Part shown: piece by piece, positions 1,289 through 12,838 of the stretch | Layout of the letters: each line of letters starts with the position of its first letter | Numbering within the stretch: the stretch's first letter is position 1 | DNA from: a virus | Lineage: Duplodnaviria > Heunggongvirae > Uroviricota > Caudoviricetes | Reading direction: 5' to 3' (one strand) | Length of the DNA: 33,744 bases | IMG/VR virus record: IMGVR_UViG_2778261543_000005 | Program-made: the position numbers and the translations under genes | The notes under the pieces: generated by a model | Seen by the model: the letters and a program-made list of their open reading frames with translations, nothing else | Told to the model about the DNA's origin: nothing | Databases searched by the model: none

Positions 1289-1470
1289 TTGCTAACGAAT
1301 CATCCTGGACTTCATATGCCCCAGGCGGCTACTTCGTGGGTGTCCTGCCTGTTCGTTGTCATAACACCTTTAAGTTGTAATTTAGTTGTGGTTTTGAATA
1401 TTGTCAACAACTTTATGTGGTTTGAACGAGTAGCCAAGGAGTGCAAGGATTATCAAAAAAAGGAGGTTGT

Positions 1471-2361
1471 ATGGAAGACGCGCTTTACGCTTTTAATTAC
1501 ACACAGAACCGGGACAAGTTATTTGCTAACTTGATTAGCATCATTGATGGAATCATTGCAGATGGAGTTGTCCGTGAAGAGGAGGTTCTTTACTTAGATA
1601 CATGGTTACTTGAAGCAAAGCAGATTATCAATAATGGAGTTATAAAAAGTCTATCTGCTCGGGTGTCGGATATTCTTGCGGATGGAATAATCACATCAGA
1701 AGAACGTGATGACCTTAAAAATAGCCTTCTCCAAATACAGAGGGAAATTCTTGATATCCCTGAAATTGATTTTTACTCCAAGGATGTAGATGTCCATTTA
1801 CTTAATGGACTATGTAAAGGATTAATTGCTGATCGGAACTTAACTCAAGAAGAAATAAGATATCTTAATTGGTGGCTTGAGCAAAATGGAGCTTTGAAGA
1901 ACAACTACCCAGGAAAAAAACTTTATGCACTTGTAAAGGAAATTCTTAAAGATGGTGTTATTACTGAAGATGAGAGTTTAACTCTACATAAGGCATTAGT
2001 AGACTTCACAGGATGTGACTTGGAAAGTGGGGTGGTGGATGGTTTGGCGACCAGGCTGCCTATTGATGTAGGGGCTTCGATAGAGTTAGAGGGTAAAACC
2101 TATTGTCTTACAGGCACTTTTGTTGCAGGAAAGAGAGCCGTAGTTGAAAATTTGATTAAAAATGCTGGTGGGAACATCAGTAGTGGAATTACTCAAAAGT
2201 TGGATTTTTTAGTAATTGGGACGCTTTCCTCCCGTGATTGGAAATTCTCTAGTCACGGAAGGAAGATCGAAAAGGCTATATCTTATAGGGATGATAATGG
2301 TGCAAAACTTAAAATTATTTCTGAAGAAATGCTTTTCGATGCATTACCAAGTTCGCGATGA
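1471..2361 (+). CDS. Cargo protein with N-terminal TerB-like repeated (A/K)DG-x-I/V...EE...L motifs and a C-terminal BRCT-like domain
   Basis: ATG at 1471 preceded by aaaaaggagg. Four repeats (IADGVVREEEV, LADGIITSEER, IADRNLTQEEI, LKDGVITEDES). C-terminus (KTYCLTGTF...IKNAGG...LDFLVIGT) resembles the BRCT domain of NAD-dependent ligases. Domain calls are by eye. Confidence 0.6.
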   Translation: MEDALYAFNYTQNRDKLFANLISIIDGIIADGVVREEEVLYLDTWLLEAKQIINNGVIKSLSARVSDILADGIITSEERDDLKNSLLQIQREILDIPEIDFYSKDVDVHLLNGLCKGLIADRNLTQEEIRYLNWWLEQNGALKNNYPGKKLYALVKEILKDGVITEDESLTLHKALVDFTGCDLESGVVDGLATRLPIDVGASIELEGKTYCLTGTFVAGKRAVVENLIKNAGGNISSGITQKLDFLVIGTLSSRDWKFSSHGRKIEKAISYRDDNGAKLKIISEEMLFDALPSSR

Positions 2362-3030
2362 CCAGAATACCCTACCTATAACATGAATTCTGGCTCGTCT
2401 ATCTTCAAAGGTGAGTATTTCATCTGGGTACTCATCTTTGTTGAAGCTTCTAAGAATCAAGCCACCGTCAGGTAAGTTGATAAGTATTTTAACCCTTAGC
2501 AATACACCATCTCGTACGGCATAAAGATCGCCATCACGAATAGGAACGGTTTGAGAAATATCAACGGCAACAAGATCTCCATTATTGAGAACCGGTAATA
2601 AACTGTTCCCCCATATTTGTACGATCTTGGCATTAGATGCACATACGCCAGATTTTCTCAAATCTGCTCTTCTTAACGGAAACCAGTCAATAGCTGATTC
2701 AACTATTTCAGCCAGACATCCGTTACCTGCCGATAACTCGACATCTAAAACAGGAATGTTTACGAAAATATCGGGGTCTAATGCGGTGCTTTCTGCTTCT
2801 TTTACAACAAGATCAGGTATGGATGCGTTGTCTTCAATACCAAGTTGTAACCACTTTTGTGATACACCTAAAACTTTTGCAATTTCTTTAATTTTGCGCG
2901 GTTGTAGAGTTTCGCCATTCTCTATTTTGGCTACAGATTGTTGTGAAAGTCCAATTTTTTCAGCTAGTTGAGCTTGGCTCATGCCAGCTTTCTCTCTACC
3001 TATCTTTAATCGTTCTGCCAGTGTTTTCAC
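2344..3030 (-). CDS. Phage repressor, CI/LexA-like (N-terminal XRE-type HTH + C-terminal S24 peptidase domain)
   Basis: GTG start at 3030 with GAGGG upstream. N-terminus MSQAQLAEKIGLSQQSVAKIENGE is a typical HTH; C-terminal half matches the S24 self-cleaving fold. Divergent from a Cro-like gene. Confidence 0.85.
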   Translation of the reverse strand: MKTLAERLKIGREKAGMSQAQLAEKIGLSQQSVAKIENGETLQPRKIKEIAKVLGVSQKWLQLGIEDNASIPDLVVKEAESTALDPDIFVNIPVLDVELSAGNGCLAEIVESAIDWFPLRRADLRKSGVCASNAKIVQIWGNSLLPVLNNGDLVAVDISQTVPIRDGDLYAVRDGVLLRVKILINLPDGGLILRSFNKDEYPDEILTFEDRRARIHVIGRVFWSSRTW

Positions 3031-3994: not shown

Positions 3995-4329
3995 ACAGTT
4001 TAACAACACACTACCGTCGCTCGCAACTGATTGCGCTTCCTTTACCGGGTGGAAAAGCGAAGGTGGAGTATTGCTATGCAGTGAATGTACCAGGTGACAG
4101 GGAAATTGTAACCCACAGCTTTGCAGAGTGGGCTGTGGGTGATTTCAACCGGCAGAAGGAGACAGTCCTTTGCGACAAGTTAACCGCTGGTTCAAAGATC
4201 ACTACGGAGTGCCCGTCAGAGTCATTCGTTGGGAACCGGAAACACAACGGGTTATCTACCTTCGCGAAGGTTATGAGCATGAATGCTTCAGTCCGCTCGA
4301 ACAGTTTCGTCGTAAATTCAGGGAAATAG
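3991..4329 (+). CDS. Hypothetical early protein (112 aa)
   Basis: Translationally coupled to the upstream gene (ATGA overlap); no motif recognised. Confidence 0.4.
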
Positions 4330-4338
4330 AGGTCGGTC

Positions 4339-5280
4339 ATGAGCACTAAATTAACCGGCTATGTATGGGATGGTTGCGCTGCATCAGGCATGAAGTTATC
4401 CAGCGTGGCAATTATGGCCCGCCTGGCTGATTTCAGTAATGACGAAGGTGTGTGCTGGCCATCAATTGAAACCATTGCCCGTCAGATTGGCGCGGGGATG
4501 AGTACCGTCAGAACGGCTATCGCACGGCTGGAAGCAGAAGGCTGGTTAACGCGTAAGGCGCGTCGCCAGGGTAACCGTAATGCGTCGAATGTTTATCAGC
4601 TTAACGTTGCGAAGCTTCAGGCAGCGGCATTTTCTCAACTGTCAGATTCTGACCCGTCAAAATCTGACGCATCAAAATCTGACCCGTCAAAATTTGATGC
4701 GTCGAAATCTGGCAAAAAAGCGGGTTTTCACCCGTCAGAATCTGGCGGGGATCCGTCAGTAAAATCAAAACATGATCCGTCAGATAAAAAATCTTCTCGT
4801 CCGGACGCTTCGCAACCGGACACGCAGACGGATGGACAGGATTTTTTAACTCGCCATCCTGATGCGGTTGTATTCAGCCCTAAAAAGCGCCAGTGGGGGA
4901 CGCAGGATGATTTGACCTGCGCACAGTGGCTTTGGAAAAAAATCATCGCCCTGTACGAGCAGGCCGCCGAATGTGACGGCGAGGTGGTTCGTCCCAAAGA
5001 ACCTAACTGGACAGCCTGGGCAAACGAAATTCGCCTGATGTGTGTGCAGGATGGTCGTACTCACAAACAAATCTGCGAGATGTACAGCCGCGTCAGCCGC
5101 GATCCGTTCTGGTGCCGTAACGTGCTCAGCCCGTCGAAGCTGCGGGAAAAATGGGATGAGCTTTCCCTGCGCTTATCGCCGTCCGTAAGCACGTACACCG
5201 AAAAACGCGAAGACCCGTACTTCAAATCCAGTTACGACAACGTGGACTACAGCCAGATCCCGGCAGGATTCAGGGGGTGA
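4339..5280 (+). CDS. Replication initiator (O-like; N-terminal HTH domain) with an embedded iteron array
   Basis: RBS aaatagaggtcggtc-ATG. N-terminal HTH (GMSTVRTAIARLEAEGWL) typical of phage replication initiators. Internal DNA repeats encode the low-complexity DPSKSDASKSDPSKFDASKS stretch. Confidence 0.65.
   Translation: MSTKLTGYVWDGCAASGMKLSSVAIMARLADFSNDEGVCWPSIETIARQIGAGMSTVRTAIARLEAEGWLTRKARRQGNRNASNVYQLNVAKLQAAAFSQLSDSDPSKSDASKSDPSKFDASKSGKKAGFHPSESGGDPSVKSKHDPSDKKSSRPDASQPDTQTDGQDFLTRHPDAVVFSPKKRQWGTQDDLTCAQWLWKKIIALYEQAAECDGEVVRPKEPNWTAWANEIRLMCVQDGRTHKQICEMYSRVSRDPFWCRNVLSPSKLREKWDELSLRLSPSVSTYTEKREDPYFKSSYDNVDYSQIPAGFRG
4640..4795. repeat. Iteron array / putative replication origin inside the initiator gene
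   Basis: Tandem units tctgacccgtcaaaatctgacgcatcaaaa (4648-4677) and tctgacccgtcaaaatttgatgcgtcgaaa (4678-4707), plus further ccgtcag(a/t)aaatc copies to about 4790; contains an 11-bp inverted repeat gacgcatcaaa/tttgatgcgtc. Confidence 0.55.
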
Positions 5281-5282
5281 TC

Positions 5283-5771
5283 ATGAGTCTTTTGAATGAA
5301 GTTCAGAAATACATTGAAGCCCATCCGGGGTGTACTTCCGGAGACATTGCGGATGCTTTTGCAGGTTACTCACGGCAGCGCGTTCTGCAGTCAGCAAGCA
5401 AGTTACGTCAGAGTGGTCGTGTGGCTCACCGTTGTGAAGGGGATACACGCAGACATTTCCCGCGCCTGACTGAGAGAGCGCAGGAGGCGGAACCGCAACC
5501 AGTTCGTGAAACCAGACCTGTGCGCAATTTCTATGTCGGCACTAACGACCCGCGGGAGATTTTGTGCCTGACCCGCCAGGCTGAAGAACTGGAGTCCAGG
5601 GGCTTATACCGTCGTGCTGCAACGGTGTGGATGGCGGCATTCCGTGAAAGCCACTCCCAGCCAGAACGAAACAATTTTCTGGCGCGTCGTGAGCGGTGCT
5701 TACGGAAAAGCAGCAAGCGCGCTGCATCGGGTGAAGAGTGGTATCTGTCAGGGAATTACGTGGGGGCTTAA
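5283..5771 (+). CDS. PerC-family-like transcriptional regulator
   Basis: ATG at 5283 after aggggg. C-terminal GLYRRAATVWMAAF...FLARRERCLRKS resembles the PerC/Pch family signature. By-eye assignment. Confidence 0.5.
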   Translation: MSLLNEVQKYIEAHPGCTSGDIADAFAGYSRQRVLQSASKLRQSGRVAHRCEGDTRRHFPRLTERAQEAEPQPVRETRPVRNFYVGTNDPREILCLTRQAEELESRGLYRRAATVWMAAFRESHSQPERNNFLARRERCLRKSSKRAASGEEWYLSGNYVGA

Positions 5772-6097
5772 TGACGACGTTAACTCAATGCCAGCAGCAG
5801 GTGCTGGATATGCTGATTTCTTATCAGAAAGAACGTGGCTTCCCGCCAACCAATCAGGAGGTGGCAACCATGCTGGGATACCGTTCGGTGAATGCAGCGG
5901 TGGAGCATCTTCGTGCGCTGGAGAAAAAAGGCGTCATCACGATAAAGCGTGGCGTGGCCCGGGGGATAACGCTTCATACCGCGGTGAAGGACGACGACAG
6001 CGAGGCGGTCGGGATTATCCGCTCACTGCTTGCCGGTGAGGAAAACGCCAGGCTGCGTGCAGCCCACTGGTTACATGAGAGGGGCCTGAAAGTATGA
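5771..6097 (+). CDS. LexA N-terminal DNA-binding domain homologue lacking the S24 peptidase domain
   Basis: Aligns by eye to the LexA N-terminus (LT.RQQ.V.D.I...G.PPT..E.A..LG.RS.NAA.EHL.AL..KGVI.I..G..RGI.L); only 108 aa, no Ala-Gly cleavage site or Ser/Lys dyad. TAATG overlap with the upstream gene. Confidence 0.65.
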   Translation: MTTLTQCQQQVLDMLISYQKERGFPPTNQEVATMLGYRSVNAAVEHLRALEKKGVITIKRGVARGITLHTAVKDDDSEAVGIIRSLLAGEENARLRAAHWLHERGLKV

Positions 6098-6483
6098 AGC
6101 TTATTCTGCCTTTTCCGCCCAGCGTGAACACGTACTGGCGACACCCCAACAAAGGGGCGTTTGCTGGTAAGAGCCTGATAAGCACGGCGGGGCGAAAATT
6201 CCAGAGCGCGGCGTGCGCAGCAATAGTTGAGCAGTTACGTCGTCTGCCGAAACCAACGTCGGCACCTGCTGCAGTGGAGATCGTGTTGTTTCCACCGGAT
6301 AACCGGATCCGCGATCTGGACAACTATAACAAGGCGCTGTTTGACGCCCTGACCCACGCGGGGGTGTGGGAAGACGACAGTCAGGTGAAAAGAATGCTGG
6401 TGGAGTGGGGACCGGTTATCCCGGAAGGGAAGGTCGAGATCACTATCAGTAAGTACGAGAAAACGGCGGGTGCAGCCGCCTGA
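6094..6483 (+). CDS. rusA: Holliday junction resolvase RusA
   Basis: 129 aa; LPFPPSVNTYWRH...RDLDNYNKALFDALT matches the RusA motif pattern; ATGA overlap with the upstream gene. Confidence 0.8.
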   Translation: MKLILPFPPSVNTYWRHPNKGAFAGKSLISTAGRKFQSAACAAIVEQLRRLPKPTSAPAAVEIVLFPPDNRIRDLDNYNKALFDALTHAGVWEDDSQVKRMLVEWGPVIPEGKVEITISKYEKTAGAAA

Positions 6484-6502
6484 TCAAGAGGAGAAACGAA
6501 GT

Positions 6503-7300
6503 ATGAATAATCTGATGGTCATTGATGGTATTGAAGTTCGTCGTGATGCTTATGGGCGTTACAGCCTGAACGATCTGCACAGGGCTGCCGGTTCTCTGGA
6601 TAAGCATAAGCCTGCATTCTGGCTCCGCAATGAGCAAACTGAACGTTTAATAAGCGAGTTGCAGATTTGCAACTCGGTCAATATAGAGCCAGTTAACGTT
6701 ATTCGTGGCGGAAATAACCAGGGGACGTATGTCTGCAAAGAACTGGTGTATGCCTATGCAATGTGGATCAGCCCGTCATTCCATCTGAAGGTGATTCGTA
6801 CTTTCGACATGGTAACCAGCGCACCGGAAAAATTATCCGGACAGGCTGCTGACAAGATGCAGGCTGGTGTGATTCTGCTGGACTTTATGCGCCGGGAATT
6901 AAACCTGTCTAACTCTTCAGTGCTTGGTGCCTGTCAGAAGCTTCAGGAGGCTGTTGGCTTACCGAATCTGGCACCTCGCTATGCCATTGATGCTCCTGCT
7001 GACGCGCCTGATGGCTCAAGTCGCCCGACACTGTCACTGAGTGCACTGCTGAAACAGTATGGTATCTGCCTGACGGCTAATCAGGCATATCACCAGATGG
7101 CGAAGCTGGGGATCGTTGAACAACGCGAACGATACAGCCGTACCGCGATTAACAACATCAAAAAATTCTGGTCGCTGACGGCGAAAGGCTGCATGTTCGG
7201 CAAGAACATCACCAGTCCCGCAAATCCGCGCGAGACGCAGCCGCATTTCTTCGAATCCCGATTCCCTGAGCTGTTAAAGCTGCTCGATACCGTTCATTGA
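6503..7300 (+). CDS. KilA-N domain protein (anti-repressor-like)
   Basis: ATG at 6503 after aagaggag. N-terminus MNNLMVIDGIEVRRDAYGRYSLNDLHRAAG is typical of the KilA-N domain. Confidence 0.65.
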   Translation: MNNLMVIDGIEVRRDAYGRYSLNDLHRAAGSLDKHKPAFWLRNEQTERLISELQICNSVNIEPVNVIRGGNNQGTYVCKELVYAYAMWISPSFHLKVIRTFDMVTSAPEKLSGQAADKMQAGVILLDFMRRELNLSNSSVLGACQKLQEAVGLPNLAPRYAIDAPADAPDGSSRPTLSLSALLKQYGICLTANQAYHQMAKLGIVEQRERYSRTAINNIKKFWSLTAKGCMFGKNITSPANPRETQPHFFESRFPELLKLLDTVH

Positions 7301-7301
7301 G

Positions 7302-8297
7302 GTGACCGTGAGAGCACTACTGACCCCTGAAATTGCCCCGCGTATGGGGATCGTATTGTTCAGGCCAAGTTCAGAGCTGATGCCCCTGTTTATGCAGGGG
7401 CGTGTCCTGCTGGAGCCTGAGCCGGAGCGTTATTCATCTTTCGCCAGTGGTGCCGTTCCCGCGGCATCACAACCGCTGGCGGATGATCCTGCCGTTCGGG
7501 CCGTGTTCCGCAATGAGGCAGTGATCCGTCGTGCTGGTGGCGTGGAATGTCTTGAAAGCTGGTTACTTCGTGAAAAAGGCTGCCAGTGGCCTCATTCCAA
7601 CTGGCACAGCGAGAACATGACCACAATGCGACACGCGCCTGGCGCAATCCGTCTGTGCTGGCACTGCGATAACCAACTGCGCGATCAGTTCACGGAACGG
7701 CTGGAATCAATGGCAACGGATAACTGTGCCCGCTGGGTGTTGTCTGTTGTGCGTCGGGATCTCGGTTTTGATGATAGTCACGTTGTGACAATGCCGGAAC
7801 TGTGCTGGTGGCTGGTTCGTAATGATCTGGCGGATGCCTTACCGGAAAGCGCAGCCCGTAAGGCACTGAGATTACCGAAGCCTGTTGTGCCGTCTGTCAC
7901 CCGGGAAAGTGACCTTGTGCCTTCGGTTCCAGCCACCAGCATCATGCAGGATAAAGCGAAAAAGGTGCTGGCGCTGAAAGTGGAGCCGGAGTCGCCGGAG
8001 TCTTTTATGTTACGCCCCAAACGTCGCCGCTGGGTTAATGAAAAGTACACGCGCTGGGTTAAGACACAGCCGTGTGCATGTTGTGGAAAGCCTGCTGATG
8101 ATCCCCACCACCTGATAGGCCACGGTCAGGGGGGAATGAGTACAAAAGCGCATGACCTCTTTGTGTTGCCTTTGTGCAGAAAGCATCACGACGAGCTGCA
8201 TGCGGATACCGTGGCATTTGAAGAGAAGTATGGCTCCCAGCTGGAGCTGATATTTCGTTTTATCGACCGTGTGTTGGCAATTGGTGTGCTAGCCTGA
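7302..8297 (+). CDS. Phage early protein with C-terminal Cys/His-rich motif (DUF968-like)
   Basis: GTG start at 7302; C-terminal CACCGKP...HHLIGHG...CRKHHDELH suggests a zinc-binding, HNH-like module. Family name from memory, not searched. Confidence 0.45.
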   Translation: MTVRALLTPEIAPRMGIVLFRPSSELMPLFMQGRVLLEPEPERYSSFASGAVPAASQPLADDPAVRAVFRNEAVIRRAGGVECLESWLLREKGCQWPHSNWHSENMTTMRHAPGAIRLCWHCDNQLRDQFTERLESMATDNCARWVLSVVRRDLGFDDSHVVTMPELCWWLVRNDLADALPESAARKALRLPKPVVPSVTRESDLVPSVPATSIMQDKAKKVLALKVEPESPESFMLRPKRRRWVNEKYTRWVKTQPCACCGKPADDPHHLIGHGQGGMSTKAHDLFVLPLCRKHHDELHADTVAFEEKYGSQLELIFRFIDRVLAIGVLA

Positions 8298-8314
8298 TTT
8301 GGTGGAGAAAGTTG

Positions 8315-8680
8315 ATGCGTGATATTCAGATGGTTCTGGAGCGTTGGGGAGCATGGGCGGCGAGTGATAGTTCAGGCGTTGATTATTCACCTATAGCCGC
8401 TGGGTTTAAGGGACTTCTTCCCTATACAAGCAAGAAACGCTTGGCTTGTTCGGATAGTGATGCCTTAATTATTGAAGGTTGTCTTGCTCGTCTAAAGCAA
8501 AAAAGGCCGGACGAACATTCGCTTCTTGTTGCCCATTACCTATACGGTATCTCTAAAAGAAAGCTCGCCAAGGCTCGTAAAAAAGATGAGAAATTGATAC
8601 GTATAGAAATACAGCTAGCCGAAGGATTTATTGATGGCTGCCTTTCCATGCTAGATCTAACATTAGATTTGGACGTTTAA
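8315..8680 (+). CDS. Late-gene antiterminator Q-like protein
   Basis: MRDIQMVLERWGAWAA...IAAGFKG is characteristic of the phage antitermination Q family; sits at the end of the early operon. The track ORF begins at a TTG one codon upstream. Confidence 0.7.
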   Translation: MRDIQMVLERWGAWAASDSSGVDYSPIAAGFKGLLPYTSKKRLACSDSDALIIEGCLARLKQKRPDEHSLLVAHYLYGISKRKLAKARKKDEKLIRIEIQLAEGFIDGCLSMLDLTLDLDV

Positions 8681-8681
8681 T

Positions 8682-8705
8682 AATACGCCCCTGCATGGGC
8701 GTATT
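8682..8705. terminator. Perfect 9-bp stem hairpin (aatacgccc ctgcat gggcgtatt) between convergent Q and KAP NTPase genes; possible bidirectional terminator
   Basis: Exact inverted repeat with a 6-nt loop, flanked by A/T-rich sequence on both sides, lying between two convergent stop codons. Confidence 0.5.
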
Positions 8706-8707
8706 AT

Positions 8708-10039
8708 TTACTGGATGAATGACATTTGATTAATATATTTTATCAATAACTCTCTGGGTGTAGTACTCCAAAAATTTATGTGTTCATAATCAGTATAAAC
8801 ATTTGTGAATTTTTTAAGTTCTTCATCACTTTTAGGGGCAAATCGCTCATTAAGAGTAATACTGTCTTTAATTATTCCGAAGAATACAATGGATATTTCA
8901 GGGATTTGCGATCTTCTCTCATAAGAATAAGGTATTTCTTTTATGTTAAGCAGGTCTGCTAAATAAGATATAGATTCAGCGGTAATTTCTTGTTTTAGTT
9001 TTTCCTTGTTACCAAAGCAATGTATGAAGGCAGCTACGACAAAGATCATATTTATTAAAGGATCACTGCTTTTGTTCTCATCGTCGTTTAACAGTTGAAA
9101 AATGTTAAGATTGCGTGAAAATGTTTGTGTTTCACGTAATGATAAGTTGGTTCGTTGAATTAAATCACGGATAAAGTAACCTGATAATCTATTGATTTTA
9201 TTCAATAACCTTGTTTTTTCTACAAGGTAATCCCAATATATAACAGAGGCTTTACATACGTTGTGACCATTTATCAAACATGTATCTGGAAGCGTGATGG
9301 TATATTTTATAAACTTGTCAAGATACTTTTGTGAGTTAATGCTATAACCATAAATATGATTTATAGATGCTTTTAATTGTTCTGTGTTTGTAACTAAAAT
9401 AAAAAAGACATTATTGATGTCAAAAATGTGTTTTATTGTTTCAATGACATTTGTTGAAAAACTCGGCTTACATCGGTCTAATTCATCAATTATAATTACG
9501 ATTTTTTGATTTTTTGATATGCTTTCGATGCAGGATTTAAGTGAATTTATGTTTTTCTCTGAGTCCATATGGTCTTCAAGCAAATTTTCAATAGTCCCAT
9601 CTATTGCTGCATTGCTTGCTTTCTTCATCGCATCTTGGAATTCTTCGGCAACTTCACTAGCCTCCTGTCGTAAAAACCAACCTGCACCAGCTTTTAGTAC
9701 CGTTTTTAAACCAAAGCGAATTGCAGGAAGAGATCTCTTAATGAAGTGTTGTTTTTCTTCCTCAGGCAAAATGCTGGCAATTGCAGAGGTTATGAGAAGT
9801 AATGGAGATTCTGCATGATCCCCTTTAAAGGCATCAATATAAACAACTTTAGATTCAGTTTCTTGCTCAATAATGAGATTTTTCAGTTTGATACTAAATT
9901 CTGTTTTCCCTGTTCCCCATGCGCCGTCTATTACCAGTGGTGAAATGTCTGCCTCTGGTTTTAGCAACTTGATGATATTTTCAGCGATGTTTCTTCGTTG
10001 GAACTCGTCACGTTCAGTGAAAGATAGTGTATCTAACAT
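8708..10039 (-). CDS. KAP-family P-loop NTPase (443 aa), AT-rich cargo gene inserted antisense between Q and the late region
   Basis: Walker A VIDGAWGTGKTEF near the N-terminus, Walker B IVIIIDELDRC, overall KAP NTPase-like organisation; visibly AT-rich; opposite orientation to flanking phage genes. Confidence 0.8.
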   Translation of the reverse strand: MLDTLSFTERDEFQRRNIAENIIKLLKPEADISPLVIDGAWGTGKTEFSIKLKNLIIEQETESKVVYIDAFKGDHAESPLLLITSAIASILPEEEKQHFIKRSLPAIRFGLKTVLKAGAGWFLRQEASEVAEEFQDAMKKASNAAIDGTIENLLEDHMDSEKNINSLKSCIESISKNQKIVIIIDELDRCKPSFSTNVIETIKHIFDINNVFFILVTNTEQLKASINHIYGYSINSQKYLDKFIKYTITLPDTCLINGHNVCKASVIYWDYLVEKTRLLNKINRLSGYFIRDLIQRTNLSLRETQTFSRNLNIFQLLNDDENKSSDPLINMIFVVAAFIHCFGNKEKLKQEITAESISYLADLLNIKEIPYSYERRSQIPEISIVFFGIIKDSITLNERFAPKSDEELKKFTNVYTDYEHINFWSTTPRELLIKYINQMSFIQ

Positions 10040-10162
10040 AATATAAACCTATTAACTCCTACAGTAAAAAACGAATAATACGACTTTGGGATTAAAAATC
10101 ATTAACGCGGTCCGCAAAAATTCTTGTAATCTGTTAAGAGTGGTTACTTCGCCACACAGCTT

Positions 10163-10194
10163 AAACCCGCCGTCGAGCGGGTTTTGTCGTTTCT
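10163..10194 (+). terminator. Intrinsic terminator (aaacccgc cgtcga gcgggttt + T-rich tail) upstream of lysis genes; candidate tR'-like terminator downstream of the late promoter
   Basis: Perfect 8-bp GC-rich stem followed by ttgtcgtttct, about 140 nt upstream of the holin start. Confidence 0.5.
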
Positions 10195-10336
10195 GGGCTT
10201 TGGTATTCGTTGGGCTTGGTCTATCTAGCTCTTATCCATTGGCTCGGCTTCTTTTACGTTTCCGCTTCTGATTTGCGGTTCGTGGTACTCCCTCAATTTG
10301 CACCTCTTGTATCGGCGAGGTGAGAGATAACTACAA

Positions 10337-10663
10337 ATGCCTCATAACCCAAATACCTGGCTGGAGTTGGTCCAGAGCTGGTGGCGTGGAGACACACCGC
10401 TGGGCGCAGTGATTATGTCGATTGTTATGGCTGGTTTACGTATCGCCTATTTTGGCGGTGGTGGCGGTTGGAAGCGAAAAACACTCGAAATTCTACTCTG
10501 TGGCGCTCTGACGCTGACTTTTGCATCCGCTCTTGAGTATGTCGGATGGCCTAAATCACTATCTGTTGCCATTGGTGGTGGGGTGGGGCTGATCGGTGTC
10601 GATGCTATTCGTGGGGCTGCAATGCGAGTAATCGGTAACAAATTTGGTGGCTCTAAGGAGTAA
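10337..10663 (+). CDS. Holin (lambda S-like, three predicted transmembrane segments)
   Basis: 108 aa with hydrophobic stretches and a charged C-terminus; by-eye similarity to lambda S; immediately upstream of the endolysin. Confidence 0.75.
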   Translation: MPHNPNTWLELVQSWWRGDTPLGAVIMSIVMAGLRIAYFGGGGGWKRKTLEILLCGALTLTFASALEYVGWPKSLSVAIGGGVGLIGVDAIRGAAMRVIGNKFGGSKE

Positions 10664-10666
10664 TTT

Positions 10667-11143
10667 ATGCAGGTACTAAATTCCCAGCGTAAAGCTTTCC
10701 TTGATATGGTGGCTTGGTCAGAAGGAACGGATAACGGACGACAACCGACACGTAACCACGGTTATGACGTTATTGTCGGTGGTGAACTCTTCACTGATTA
10801 CTCCGATCACCCTCGCAAACTTGTCACGCTAAACCCGAAACTCAAGTCAACAGCCGCCGGACGTTACCAGCTTCTTTCACGCTGGTGGGATGCTTACCGT
10901 AAACAGCTTGGCCTGAAAGATTTTTCTCCAGAAAGCCAGGACGCTGTAGCTCTGCAGCAGATTAAAGAGCGTGGCGCTTTACCGATGATTGACCGTGGCA
11001 ATATTCGTCAGGCAATCGACCGTTGCAGCAATATCTGGGCGTCATTACCTGGTGCAGGTTACGGTCAGTATGAACATAAAATCGGTGACCTGATTGCACG
11101 GTTTGAAGAGGCTGGTGGGGTGATAAATGAAGTTGAGCTATAA
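10667..11143 (+). CDS. Endolysin, lambda R-like lytic transglycosylase
   Basis: Near-identity by eye to lambda R (QRKAFLDM.AWSEGTDNGRQ.TRNHGYDVIVGGELFTDYSDHPRKLVTLNPKLKST.AGRYQLLSRWWDAYRKQLGLKDFSP.SQDAVALQQIKERGALPMIDRG.IRQAIDRCSNIWASLPGAGYGQ). Confidence 0.9.
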   Translation: MQVLNSQRKAFLDMVAWSEGTDNGRQPTRNHGYDVIVGGELFTDYSDHPRKLVTLNPKLKSTAAGRYQLLSRWWDAYRKQLGLKDFSPESQDAVALQQIKERGALPMIDRGNIRQAIDRCSNIWASLPGAGYGQYEHKIGDLIARFEEAGGVINEVEL

Positions 11144-11519
11144 GCTGGTTATCGCTGCTTTCTTCGTTACTGTCATTGGTTCTTTCATCTGGTCAGCCAA
11201 CCACTACTACAGCAAATATCAGTACGAAAAGAAACGTGCTGATGAGGCTGAACGAAATGCTGGATCAGCAACAGCCATTACCAATAACGTCCTGCAATCA
11301 CTGCAAATCGTCAATACAGTACTGGAGGCTAACCAGCATGCAAAACAGCAGATCGCACTGGAGTCACAGAGAACCCAGGAAGATATCAAAATGGCTGTTG
11401 CGGATGATGATTGTGCTTCACGTGCTGTGCCTGCTGCCGCTGCTGACCGGTTGCGGAAGTACGCGGACAGTTTACGTGAGCGTTCCGGTGGCACCACTGC
11501 CACCCAGCCTGACTTCTGA
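11127..11519 (+). CDS. Rz-like inner-membrane spanin
   Basis: N-terminal transmembrane segment followed by a coiled-coil-like region; position after the endolysin; partly overlaps Rz1. Confidence 0.6.
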   Translation: MKLSYKLVIAAFFVTVIGSFIWSANHYYSKYQYEKKRADEAERNAGSATAITNNVLQSLQIVNTVLEANQHAKQQIALESQRTQEDIKMAVADDDCASRAVPAAAADRLRKYADSLRERSGGTTATQPDF

Positions 11520-11682: not shown

Positions 11683-12309
11683 TCAGTTGTCAAATGAATA
11701 TACGTTAAAGGTATATGTCGACATAATTTCACCAAGTACCTCAATACATACACTTTTTTTATGAAAATTACTGGGAAATGAACTTAGCTCCTCAAGACAT
11801 TGCACATAAGTGCTGATATCACTTGCATCACGTTCAAGGAATTTCACTTGACCAAAAGAAGGAGTTTTAATCTTGGTTCTTTGCTGGATTATATGGATAA
11901 AGTGTGTAGTTGGTGAAACTATTACTCTTGAAATATCGGAAATGATGTCTTCTTGAACTTGCCGATAAAGTAAATCCTTTGGGTAATGGTGTTTTATCTC
12001 GATGGTTGCAACATTGCCATTATGTTCAGACGTTAATATCGACTGGTTATAAAGTGATATGTCAACAGCGCCGATACCGAGTTTTGGATGCTCACTTAAA
12101 GCAGTTAGTGTGCTGATTTGATTGAGTATAACAACTAACTCATCACGTATTTGTGTTTCATGTTTGCGATTGTAGAAGTAGCCATTCAGTTCATTTAACT
12201 TTTTATGCATCCTATCGTGACTAATTGCTTCGATCAGTAAATCCTGAATCATACTTTTCTCTAGGTAATCCGAACGGTTGTAAGTGACAGTATTGTGCTG
12301 GCATGTCAT
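11683..12309 (-). CDS. Hypothetical protein (208 aa), second gene of an AT-rich two-gene cargo operon; possible PD-(D/E)xK-like motif
   Basis: AT-rich, opposite strand to the phage core. GIGAVDISLY...(19 aa)...ATIEIKHH is compatible with a D...ExK nuclease core (speculative). Start uncertain; alternative Met 20 at 12252. Confidence 0.55.
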   Translation of the reverse strand: MTCQHNTVTYNRSDYLEKSMIQDLLIEAISHDRMHKKLNELNGYFYNRKHETQIRDELVVILNQISTLTALSEHPKLGIGAVDISLYNQSILTSEHNGNVATIEIKHHYPKDLLYRQVQEDIISDISRVIVSPTTHFIHIIQQRTKIKTPSFGQVKFLERDASDISTYVQCLEELSSFPSNFHKKSVCIEVLGEIMSTYTFNVYSFDN

Positions 12310-12352
12310 TAATATGTAAAGGTATTGTGAATGCCAGAAAGATAACGAAGTA

Positions 12353-12688
12353 TCATCGATAGAAAAACTTTACAGCCCACTCGTAAACAGCTTTGTAAAT
12401 CGGTTCATGGTAAATACTATCGATACTATTCAGATGTGCGATCATCGCCTCCACAGTTGTAGTGGTTGTTTCTAATATTTCGATTATTGCAGGGCGGTCA
12501 TCATCTTCATCGAAGTATTCGAACAGCAGTACAGGTTTACCATGCAATTCAGCATCTGAGACTCTAAGGTTACAACTACCGCTCAACTCAAAGTGAATTT
12601 TGTAATTACCTTCTACAGAATGGCCTACGGGGAAAAAGTATAGGGTGTCATCTTTGTTCAAAAGCCATTCCCATTCATAACTATTCAT
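12353..12688 (-). CDS. Hypothetical acidic protein (111 aa), first gene of the two-gene cargo operon
   Basis: ATG at 12688 with AGGAG 7 nt upstream on the minus strand; acidic stretch EYFDEDDDRPAIIEILE. Track ORF 12353-12706 trimmed to the RBS-supported start. Confidence 0.55.
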   Translation of the reverse strand: MNSYEWEWLLNKDDTLYFFPVGHSVEGNYKIHFELSGSCNLRVSDAELHGKPVLLFEYFDEDDDRPAIIEILETTTTTVEAMIAHLNSIDSIYHEPIYKAVYEWAVKFFYR

Positions 12689-12838
12689 TTGTGAACTCCT
12701 GTTCATTGAGTTTCAACAACTATCAACTACATCCAGCGAAGCATAAAAGATCGTTTATGGCAAAACCGGAATGGAGTGCGATTCGATTCTGAGAAGGGTG
12801 CCACGTATCGTACGCGAACCATCCAAGAGGATTATGCA

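Follow-up and report, generated by a model that had tools for sequence, protein, structure and literature searches.

What does a gene on the opposite strand do between the antiterminator gene Q of a lambdoid prophage and the late promoter? The question is raised by a gene for a KAP-family P-loop NTPase (nucleoside triphosphatase) at 8708-10039, minus strand, of a 33,744-nucleotide stretch of DNA (IMG/VR virus record IMGVR_UViG_2778261543_000005, Caudoviricetes), which was analysed over its whole length and is called the window. The KAP gene is a moron in the sense of Hendrix and Juhala, i.e. a self-contained cassette with its own upstream region and a predicted terminator hairpin. A lambdoid (SfII/e14-like) Escherichia coli prophage acquired it at a hotspot of recombination, which lies between Q's stop codon and the late promoter. 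On balance we favor the view that its product is a soluble single-gene ATPase, which protects the lysogen, and hence the prophage, from superinfecting phages.

The KAP gene and its protein

The gene and the parts of its product map as follows, with the evidence in brackets.

8708-10039, minus strand: gene for a KAP-family P-loop NTPase, PADLOC candidate family PDC-S20 (Pfam, PADLOC, PHROG, AlphaFold2)
9902-9925, minus strand: Walker A or P-loop codons, residues 39-46, GAWGTGKT (alignment of 46 homologues)
9506-9805, minus strand: helical insert that separates Walker A from Walker B (residues 79-178), holding the amphipathic LPAIRFGLKTVLKAGAGWFLRQ (conservation, hydropathy, model confidence)
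9470-9499, minus strand: Walker B codons, residues 181-190, VIIIDELDRC (alignment and entropy)
8711-9088, minus strand: fast-evolving C-terminal all-alpha domain, residues 318-443 (alignment and nonsynonymous divergence)
10040-10093, minus strand: upstream region of the KAP gene, cargo-specific, i.e. 5' untranslated region and possible promoter (read from the sequence)

The open reading frame (ORF) starts with ATG and encodes 443 amino acids (aa). Its GC content was 0.329 and its GC3, the GC content at third codon positions, 0.282, whereas the GC content of the DUF968 gene was 0.556, that of the holin gene 0.517, that of Q 0.434 and that of the flanks overall about 0.5. Thus the AT-rich antisense ORF with Walker motifs, as described in an earlier note made from the letters alone, is real.

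Pfam PF07693 (KAP_NTPase) matched with an E-value of 9.4e-71 and a score of 238.9 bits, the curated gathering cutoff being 20; the match extends over residues 15-317 and positions 1-292 of the 293 of the profile. The PADLOC model PDLC04956 of PDC-S20 matched from end to end (E 4.5e-177, 588 bits; residues 3-442 on positions 4-449 of 450), and three further PDC-S20 models also gave matches, with E-values of 8e-52 to 3e-29. Partial matches were obtained with the validated defence ATPases PifA and QatA. The profile searches that the earlier note had called for therefore agreed with its KAP assignment and tied the protein to defence models. The corresponding PHROG is 8614, function unknown.

Walker A, DGAWGTGKTEF, spans residues 38-48; residues 180-192, IVIIIDELDRCKP, form Walker B. 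GAWGTGKT (39-46) conforms to GxxGxGK[ST] and IIIDELDRC (182-190) to the KAP-type hhhhD[DE]LDR. Among 46 homologues with 38-92% identity, G39, W41, G42, T43, G44 and K45 were invariant and T46 nearly so; D185, E186, L187, D188, R189 and C190 were invariant as well, and Walker B was the 20-residue block of lowest entropy in the protein. Further invariant features of the alignment were an N-terminal F-x2-RDE-x2-R, several His and Tyr residues and an LSLRE motif. Judged by these motifs the KAP protein is predicted to be an NTP-hydrolysing enzyme.

The insert between the Walker motifs belongs to the best-conserved parts of the protein, with P105, A106, K116, A117 and L123 invariant and W121 and Q125 nearly invariant. 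The part that contains LPAIRFGLKTVLKAGAGWFLRQ is amphipathic, with K and R present. Canonical KAP proteins, according to Aravind (2004) as cited in later papers, place transmembrane (TM) helices between Walker A and Walker B. No TM helix was found in the KAP protein by a hydropathy scan, which is not a dedicated TM predictor: Kyte-Doolittle means over 19 residues reached at most 1.53 overall and 0.99 and 0.76 in the insert, at a TM threshold of about 1.6. Because no 19-residue window attained the threshold, a TM-anchored KAP of the Tmn or EF_KAP kind was ruled out, and the TM prediction proposed in the earlier note came out negative.

The AlphaFold2 model of the protein had a mean confidence (pLDDT, predicted local distance difference test) of 81 and a predicted TM-score (pTM) of 0.75, with pLDDT below 50 at residues 113-134 and 140-154. 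The modelled fold is of the KAP/AAA+-like class and its core appears Orc/Cdc6-like. The closest solved folds were those of the defence ATPases BrxC and RdrA at 10-15% sequence identity, while no sequence relative of the family was present in the PDB at E ≤0.01. For the C-terminal helical bundle (residues 318-443) no fold relative was found, and the protein contained no enzymatic effector domain. We propose that the C-terminal domain acts as specificity determinant or sensor.

Upstream of the ATG there are a TATTAT hexamer resembling a -10 element at 10080-10075 on the minus strand, with a poor -35 element, and the Shine-Dalgarno-like sequences AGGAG and TAGGT. By phylogenetic footprinting a TATnnT hexamer was seen at the corresponding position upstream of the homologues from Enterobacter and Citrobacter, whereas that from Cronobacter lacked it. 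A consensus promoter scan gave no strong promoter upstream of the KAP gene, hits being at background level (8 found versus 7.0 expected). A sigma-70 promoter hit adjoining the ATG was rejected, as transcription would begin within the ORF.

The junction between Q and the late-promoter-like module

The KAP gene occupies an insert of about 1.4 kb, which extends from the Q stop codon to a late-promoter/terminator module. The slot is delimited by these elements:

8312-8680, plus strand: Q antiterminator gene, 122 aa, left border of the slot (PF06530 Phage_antitermQ, E 1.8e-52, full profile; PHROG 79, anti-termination protein Q-like)
8679-8708, no strand assigned: inverted repeat with a perfect 12-bp stem and a 6-nt loop, flanked by A/T runs (folding, z-scores)
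10094-10162, plus strand: late-promoter-like module, right border of the slot, with the palindrome CGCGGTCCGC at 10106-10115 and the invariant 24-mer GTTAAGAGTGGTTACTTCGCCACA at 10133-10156 (alignments)
10163-10194, plus strand: tR'-like intrinsic terminator, hairpin at 10163-10184 with an 8-bp stem, then TTTTGTCGTTT (terminator scan; conserved in relatives)

From the Q stop codon to GTTAAGAGTGGTTACTTCGCCACA the distance is 1,453 nt in the window and 45-47 nt in phage 1720a-02 and five IMG/VR relatives, in line with the earlier note, by which Q is normally followed at once by the late promoter. The DUF968-Q module and the block from about 10094 onwards are common to related phages, and the region between is wholly different. 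The slot is empty in 1720a-02. In SfII it holds two antisense genes, matched by PADLOC PDC-M53A/B, in cdtI an antisense unannotated protein of 147 aa together with a DUF6731 protein, and in Stx2a_WGPS2 a different antisense two-gene pair. PhiR40_1 has one antisense gene of 148 aa there, PhiR49_1 an antisense OmpD/Lc-type porin. The check for variable cargo suggested by the earlier note was thus positive.

A survey covered 80 IMG/VR contigs with Q 77-99% identical, in 61 of which the right-hand motif was located. In these 61 the Q stop codon and the motif lay 45 to 2,250 nt apart, with at least 12 discrete spacings. Clustering of the slot ORFs yielded 13 architectures: KAP, intact at 11 loci and disrupted at one more; the DUF6731 pair, at 17 loci; an empty slot, at six loci, five of which have 45-47 nt between Q stop and motif, whereas the sixth has 430 nt without an ORF; and eight or so other cargo types. 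All substantial slot ORFs lay on the minus strand, and the GC content of the slots was 0.33-0.43. Apart from KAP the cargo fell into no fewer than 11 unrelated types, each of them antisense and AT-rich; for at least 11 independent types inserted in random orientation the chance of this is about 5e-4 or less. Further matches among the cargo were PDC-S42, a CBASS-type HNH effector/PDC-M68A, a TIR-TM protein (E 2e-57) and a weak NYN nuclease. Most cargo types are unannotated, e.g. the DUF6731 protein with its TM protein and proteins of 339 and 379 aa. We found no paper that names the junction of Q stop and late promoter as a defence hotspot, Brenes & Laub 2025 being outside the coverage.

The inverted repeat at 8679-8708 overlaps the stop codons of both Q (8678-8680) and the KAP gene (8708-8710). 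Its folding energy was -17.8 kcal/mol on the plus and -17.7 kcal/mol on the minus strand (z-scores -3.6 and -4.8), and 0 of 200 shuffled sequences folded as well. It is likely to be a bidirectional intrinsic terminator that belongs to the cargo. As part of its T-tract falls within the stem, it was passed over by a simple terminator scan. In alignments each of the other cargo types had its own, different GC-rich hairpin right after the Q stop codon, whereas the empty allele had none. The perfect hairpin which the earlier note had placed at 8682-8705 is the core of this slightly larger element. Thus the insert lies between elements that are adjacent in relatives, deviates in GC content (0.33 versus about 0.5) and appears to bring its own terminator, a cargo-specific hairpin predicted to be stable on both strands.

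The late-promoter-like module is kept in SfII, cdtI, 1720a-02, PhiR40_1, PhiR49_1 and WGPS2, whatever the cargo and the downstream genes, and it was also present upstream of KAP homologues in four genera. Its position, its conservation with this type of Q irrespective of downstream genes and the lambda paradigm suggest that the conserved right-hand block is a Q-dependent late promoter (pR' with a Q-binding site) followed by an early terminator. No Rfam family was detected at the gathering threshold in the interval from Q to the lysis genes, including the predicted short terminated transcript of the module, or elsewhere in the window.

The gene order around the slot is KilA-N (6470-7300), DUF968/HNH (7302-8297), Q, antisense KAP, about 300 nt of non-coding sequence and the lysis genes. 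The lysis cassette at 10337-11519, in which a DUF2570 match was also found (E 1.6e-4), comprises:

10337-10663, plus strand: holin (PF05106 Phage_holin_3_1, E 5.7e-25; lambda-family holin by RefSeq in E. coli XH988)
10667-11143, plus strand: endolysin (GH104 endolysin by RefSeq in XH988)
11127-11519, plus strand: spanin (lysis protein by RefSeq in XH988)

Homologues, prophage contexts and selection

An identical copy of the KAP region was found in E. coli XH988. The prophage around it looks complete: besides integrase/excisionase and a CI-like repressor it has a head of the HK97 type and a tail with a sheath. The KAP gene was present in 50 of 5,426 complete E. coli genomes (about 1%), in all of them on the chromosome, at full length and with at least 95% identity. 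RefSeq labels it 'KAP family NTPase' in XH988 and throughout these 50 genomes. Overall we counted at least 2,189 homologues with a tight length distribution of about 440-447 aa, the hosts being Salmonella, Citrobacter, Enterobacter, Klebsiella, Cronobacter, Kosakonia, Yersinia, Serratia and Rahnella.

The antisense slot after Q carried KAP homologues in four genera. Those of Enterobacter and Citrobacter (65% identity) and of Cronobacter (44%) follow antisense directly after a PF06530 Q gene, in prophages which differ in their lysis and packaging genes. On the Citrobacter contig L012, which holds a lambdoid prophage with a KAP gene, the early region of the prophage has at 10240-11466 one gene with a colicin domain (PF01024) and one of the GIY-YIG kind. 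Two Cronobacter contigs (L019 and L020) hold at 4010-8790 a prophage remnant, which keeps DUF968, Q, KAP, holins, endolysin and spanin and adjoins the chromosomal nrdEFI and alaE genes. From this content it follows that the KAP gene outlived most of its phage.

A second clade of 43-47% identity, from E. coli, Yersinia and Serratia, lies between cI, the repressor gene, and the gene for the integrase of 186/P2-like prophages. These genes are on the same strand as cI and int, with gaps of 12-30 nt, and are thus situated within the lysogenic operon. In phage 186 the cI-int operon is the lysogenic transcript, which makes expression of this clade in lysogens very probable. A defence hotspot between cI and int has been described for P2-related phages (PMC9122126; PMC13586616). 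In both contexts the KAP gene is on the strand opposite lytic transcription. No gene co-varied with it; its neighbours are either Q and the late promoter or cI and int, which makes it a stand-alone gene.

These contexts bear on the possibility that the KAP protein serves the lytic cycle of the phage, either as a counter-defence factor directed at an immune system of the host or as a replication or packaging helper. The gene does lie inside an apparently complete prophage beside regulatory and lysis genes, and AAA+/Orc-like folds include loaders and remodelers. Yet it is on the strand opposite all lytic transcription, it is separated from the early operon by a predicted terminator, and P2-like prophages have it in the lysogenic cI-int operon. 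Furthermore, the isolated phage genomes among 50,697 records lack it, and so do most close relatives, which accordingly do not need KAP. We therefore consider a lytic role very unlikely.

Selection was not uniform along the protein. In the 46-sequence alignment the mean identity to the KAP protein was 56% for residues 1-317 and 22% for residues 318-443. Because an indel near residue 330 separates the KAP protein from the 65%-identical homologues, codon alignments were guided by the protein sequences. In these the nonsynonymous divergence (dN) of the C-terminal domain was 2.3-2.7 times that of the NTPase domain in 8 of 8 comparisons. Against a 93%-identical allele the ratio of dN to synonymous divergence (dS) was 0.14 for the KAP gene. 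The low dN/dS and the difference in dN between the domains indicate that the enzyme core is under purifying selection while the tail diversifies. In the comparison with one allele (L032), dS was 0.33 in the NTPase part and 0.09 in the C-terminal part; this about fourfold gap suggests recombination within the gene, by which C-terminal domains are swapped among alleles.

One of the 12 KAP-bearing loci of the survey, L056 (IMG/VR UViG_2645727905_000013), has the gene broken into ORFs of 280 and 113 aa; it is the sole decayed allele among them. This copy, together with a promoter that is unproven, might speak for a passenger, inert or in decay, that was caught at a hotspot of recombination and has no current function. 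However, the dN/dS of 0.14, catalytic motifs which are invariant down to 38% identity, the full length (100%) and at least 95% identity in 50 of 50 E. coli carriers, and the retention of the KAP gene by a Cronobacter remnant that lost most of its phage argue otherwise, and render a mere passenger highly improbable.

The proposed role and its relation to known systems

A moron need not serve defence. The KAP gene may be a lysogenic-conversion or housekeeping moron, e.g. an ATPase for host physiology, for envelope or stress signalling or for prophage maintenance, with some other benefit to the lysogen. Compatible with this are the porin in the same slot of PhiR49_1, the diverse roles that Aravind (2004), as cited in later work, gives for the KAP NTPase superfamily, and the fact that no defence phenotype is known for PDC-S20. 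On the other hand, the protein matches a defence-candidate model from end to end and has an ATPase domain in common with PifA and QatA, its closest solved folds are defence ATPases, and every context found was a prophage cargo slot, one of them a described defence hotspot. In addition, a hypervariable C-terminal domain on a conserved NTPase is the pattern of an arms-race sensor. Thus a role unrelated to defence is unlikely, and we prefer that of a protective ATPase. The reading of the earlier note as a single-gene defence candidate gained support in this way, given a KAP/AAA+-like fold and a gene that is not conserved across related prophages; the defence role itself is what we infer.

Several observations weigh against protection of the lysogen. 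PDC-S20 is a candidate family, and we found no paper which mentions it. No convincing sigma-70 promoter was found upstream of the KAP gene, so that for the slot after Q expression in the lysogen is presumed rather than seen. Among 50,697 records there was no isolated phage genome with the KAP gene, the single match being a Salmonella contig. The slot also takes cargo other than defence genes, as the OmpD/Lc-type porin of PhiR49_1 demonstrates; it is not exclusive to defence, and occupancy of the slot alone is no proof of it. Finally, the TM helices of Tmn, EF_KAP and canonical KAPs have no counterpart in the KAP protein, and the membrane analogy is the weaker for it.

If the KAP protein protects the lysogen, it might act as follows. 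Transcription of the gene would take place in the lysogen, on the opposite strand to that of lytic transcription. A phage-derived protein or complex would be recognised by the fast-evolving C-terminal bundle. Upon recognition the Orc/Cdc6-like AAA+ core could turn into an ATP-dependent oligomer, by analogy to the ring-forming RdrA. Because there is no enzymatic effector domain, the output would be either ATP-driven remodelling or sequestration of a phage target, or an attack on the cell envelope like that of PifA, mediated by the conserved amphipathic hairpin at the site of the KAP TM insert. Neither route is established.

A bolder version, which we regard as distinctly unlikely, takes the junction of Q stop and late promoter as a dedicated, orientation-locked immunity slot. 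On induction, antiterminated (N/Q-type) early read-through would cross the terminator of the cargo and silence the backward cargo by convergent transcription, which would give the prophage automatic self-immunity. KAP would then be an effector-less defence ATPase with an output via a conserved, degenerate TM hairpin (79-125) or via ATP-driven sequestration, distinct from the known KAP-effector fusions.

Two further segments of the window resemble the KAP insert in base composition. A second AT-rich antisense pair (GC 0.36-0.39) lies at 11683-12706, minus strand, between the spanin genes and the HNH/terminase module. It consists of ORFs of 208 aa (PHROG 12494) and 117 aa (PHROG 14397), neither with a Pfam or PADLOC match. 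XH988 has a DUF6236 gene in the corresponding slot. The pair was found in 82 of 5,426 E. coli genomes, annotated as 'hypothetical protein', and in no deposited phage. Tai-type defence genes have been reported upstream of the packaging module, a position like that of the pair (PMC11364771). At 1441-2361, plus strand, a 306-aa protein with a BRCT domain (Pfam BRCT, E 1.4e-6) and a weak PADLOC match to PDC-S48 (E 2.7e-7) is encoded. Its gene converges on that of a CI-like repressor (2344-3030, minus strand; HTH_3 and Peptidase_S24) with a 3' overlap of 18 nt, in a segment with a GC content of 0.36-0.41. This segment may be a third moron beside the immunity region.

The candidate family, the annotation as KAP NTPase and single-gene KAP defences in other lineages were known already. 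The RefSeq name in 50 genomes and a PADLOC model carried since 2023 make the finding less novel than the earlier note implied. Beyond the databases go the exact anatomy of the insertion, the junction as an orientation-locked cargo hotspot with many unannotated alleles, the two recurring prophage contexts and the split of the protein, put in numbers, into a conserved NTPase and a tail that diversifies. If the KAP protein were shown to defend, PDC-S20 would turn from one of PADLOC's 145 candidates into a validated system, spread over about 1% of complete E. coli genomes and also present in prophages of Salmonella, Citrobacter, Enterobacter, Klebsiella, Cronobacter, Yersinia and Serratia. A compact, soluble, effector-less KAP ATPase of 443 aa would be apt for studying how KAP immune ATPases sense and stop phages, a question open since PifA. 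New defence genes could then be mined where Q meets the late promoter in lambdoid phages of the SfII, cdtI and Stx types. Because relatives have Shiga toxin and cdt genes on the same backbone, the turnover of cargo at the junction is relevant to the competition of prophages in pathogenic E. coli.

Of the known families PDC-S20 is the one to which the KAP protein belongs; both are single genes of about 440-450 aa with an end-to-end match, and no difference was apparent at the sequence level. PDC-S20 comes from the guilt-by-embedding set of Payne et al. in PADLOC-DB v2.0.0. The PDC families are 145 explicitly untested candidates, nominated by their embedding in BREX, DISARM or type I restriction-modification loci (10.1101/2024.01.29.577857). 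That nomination is independent of the prophage context, so that the slots after Q and between cI and int are additional, independent context evidence.

The KAP NTPase domains of PifA from the F plasmid and of the KAP protein are homologous (E 6.3e-18, 62.7 bits; residues 7-252 against positions 13-255), and both proteins are single-gene products of a mobile element without a recognisable enzymatic effector. Membership was rejected, because only the N-terminal third of the 720 profile positions aligned and the KAP protein, with 443 aa as against about 720-740 aa, ends in an unrelated C-terminal bundle. PifA mediates exclusion of T7 by abortive infection, is triggered by T7 gp1.2 and gp10 and is associated with the membrane, properties which cannot be assumed for the KAP protein.

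EF_KAP and three metagenomic KAPs act as single-gene phage defences in dependence on Walker B (PMC12632615). Like the KAP protein, EF_KAP is a single-gene KAP P-loop protein with a C-terminal region without known domain. It differs by two N-terminal TM helices, a C-terminal region of 322 aa, its origin from Firmicutes and a mode of action other than abortive infection, whereas the KAP protein has no TM segment and a C-terminal domain of 126 aa. The metagenomic KAP-effector fusions (RADS preprint, PMC12632615) are likewise single-gene KAPs that block phages. Reve, the single-gene KAP system of P4 satellites, has been shown to block phages (PMC13586616). We compared it by description only; it is reported as unannotated by PADLOC, which argues for a KAP family different from PDC-S20.

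RdrA of RADAR and BrxC of BREX, the nearest solved folds, are about twice as long as the KAP protein, and their partners (the deaminase RdrB, and BrxB with PglZ, respectively) are absent from the KAP locus. RdrA forms a heptameric ring. Membership in RADAR was rejected for lack of RdrB. QatA, the KAP-type defence ATPase of QatABCD, matched locally around Walker B (PADLOC E 7.8e-12). Membership was rejected here too, as the NCBIfam model NF041923 scored 34.4 bits against a cutoff of 600 and no qatBCD genes were nearby, the neighbours being Q and holin. Tmn is a KAP-type defence ATPase with TM helices after Walker A, unlike the KAP protein, and was rejected since no Tmn model was among the PADLOC matches at E ≤0.1. 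No KAP protein was found in Vassallo 2022, in DefensePredictor or in the 2026 STAND survey.

As to the insertion, the KAP cassette resembles the morons between Q and the lysis genes of lambdoid phages (the lc/nmpC porin of PA-2 and DLP12, and stx) and the prophage hotspots of P2/P4 and, between cI and int, of K139-like phages. These are likewise autonomous AT-rich cassettes between genes which are adjacent in relatives, with a high turnover of cargo. The KAP slot is narrowly defined. Bounded by the Q stop codon on one side and by the late promoter on the other, it lies upstream of pR', whereas stx lies downstream, and its cargo is antisense throughout.

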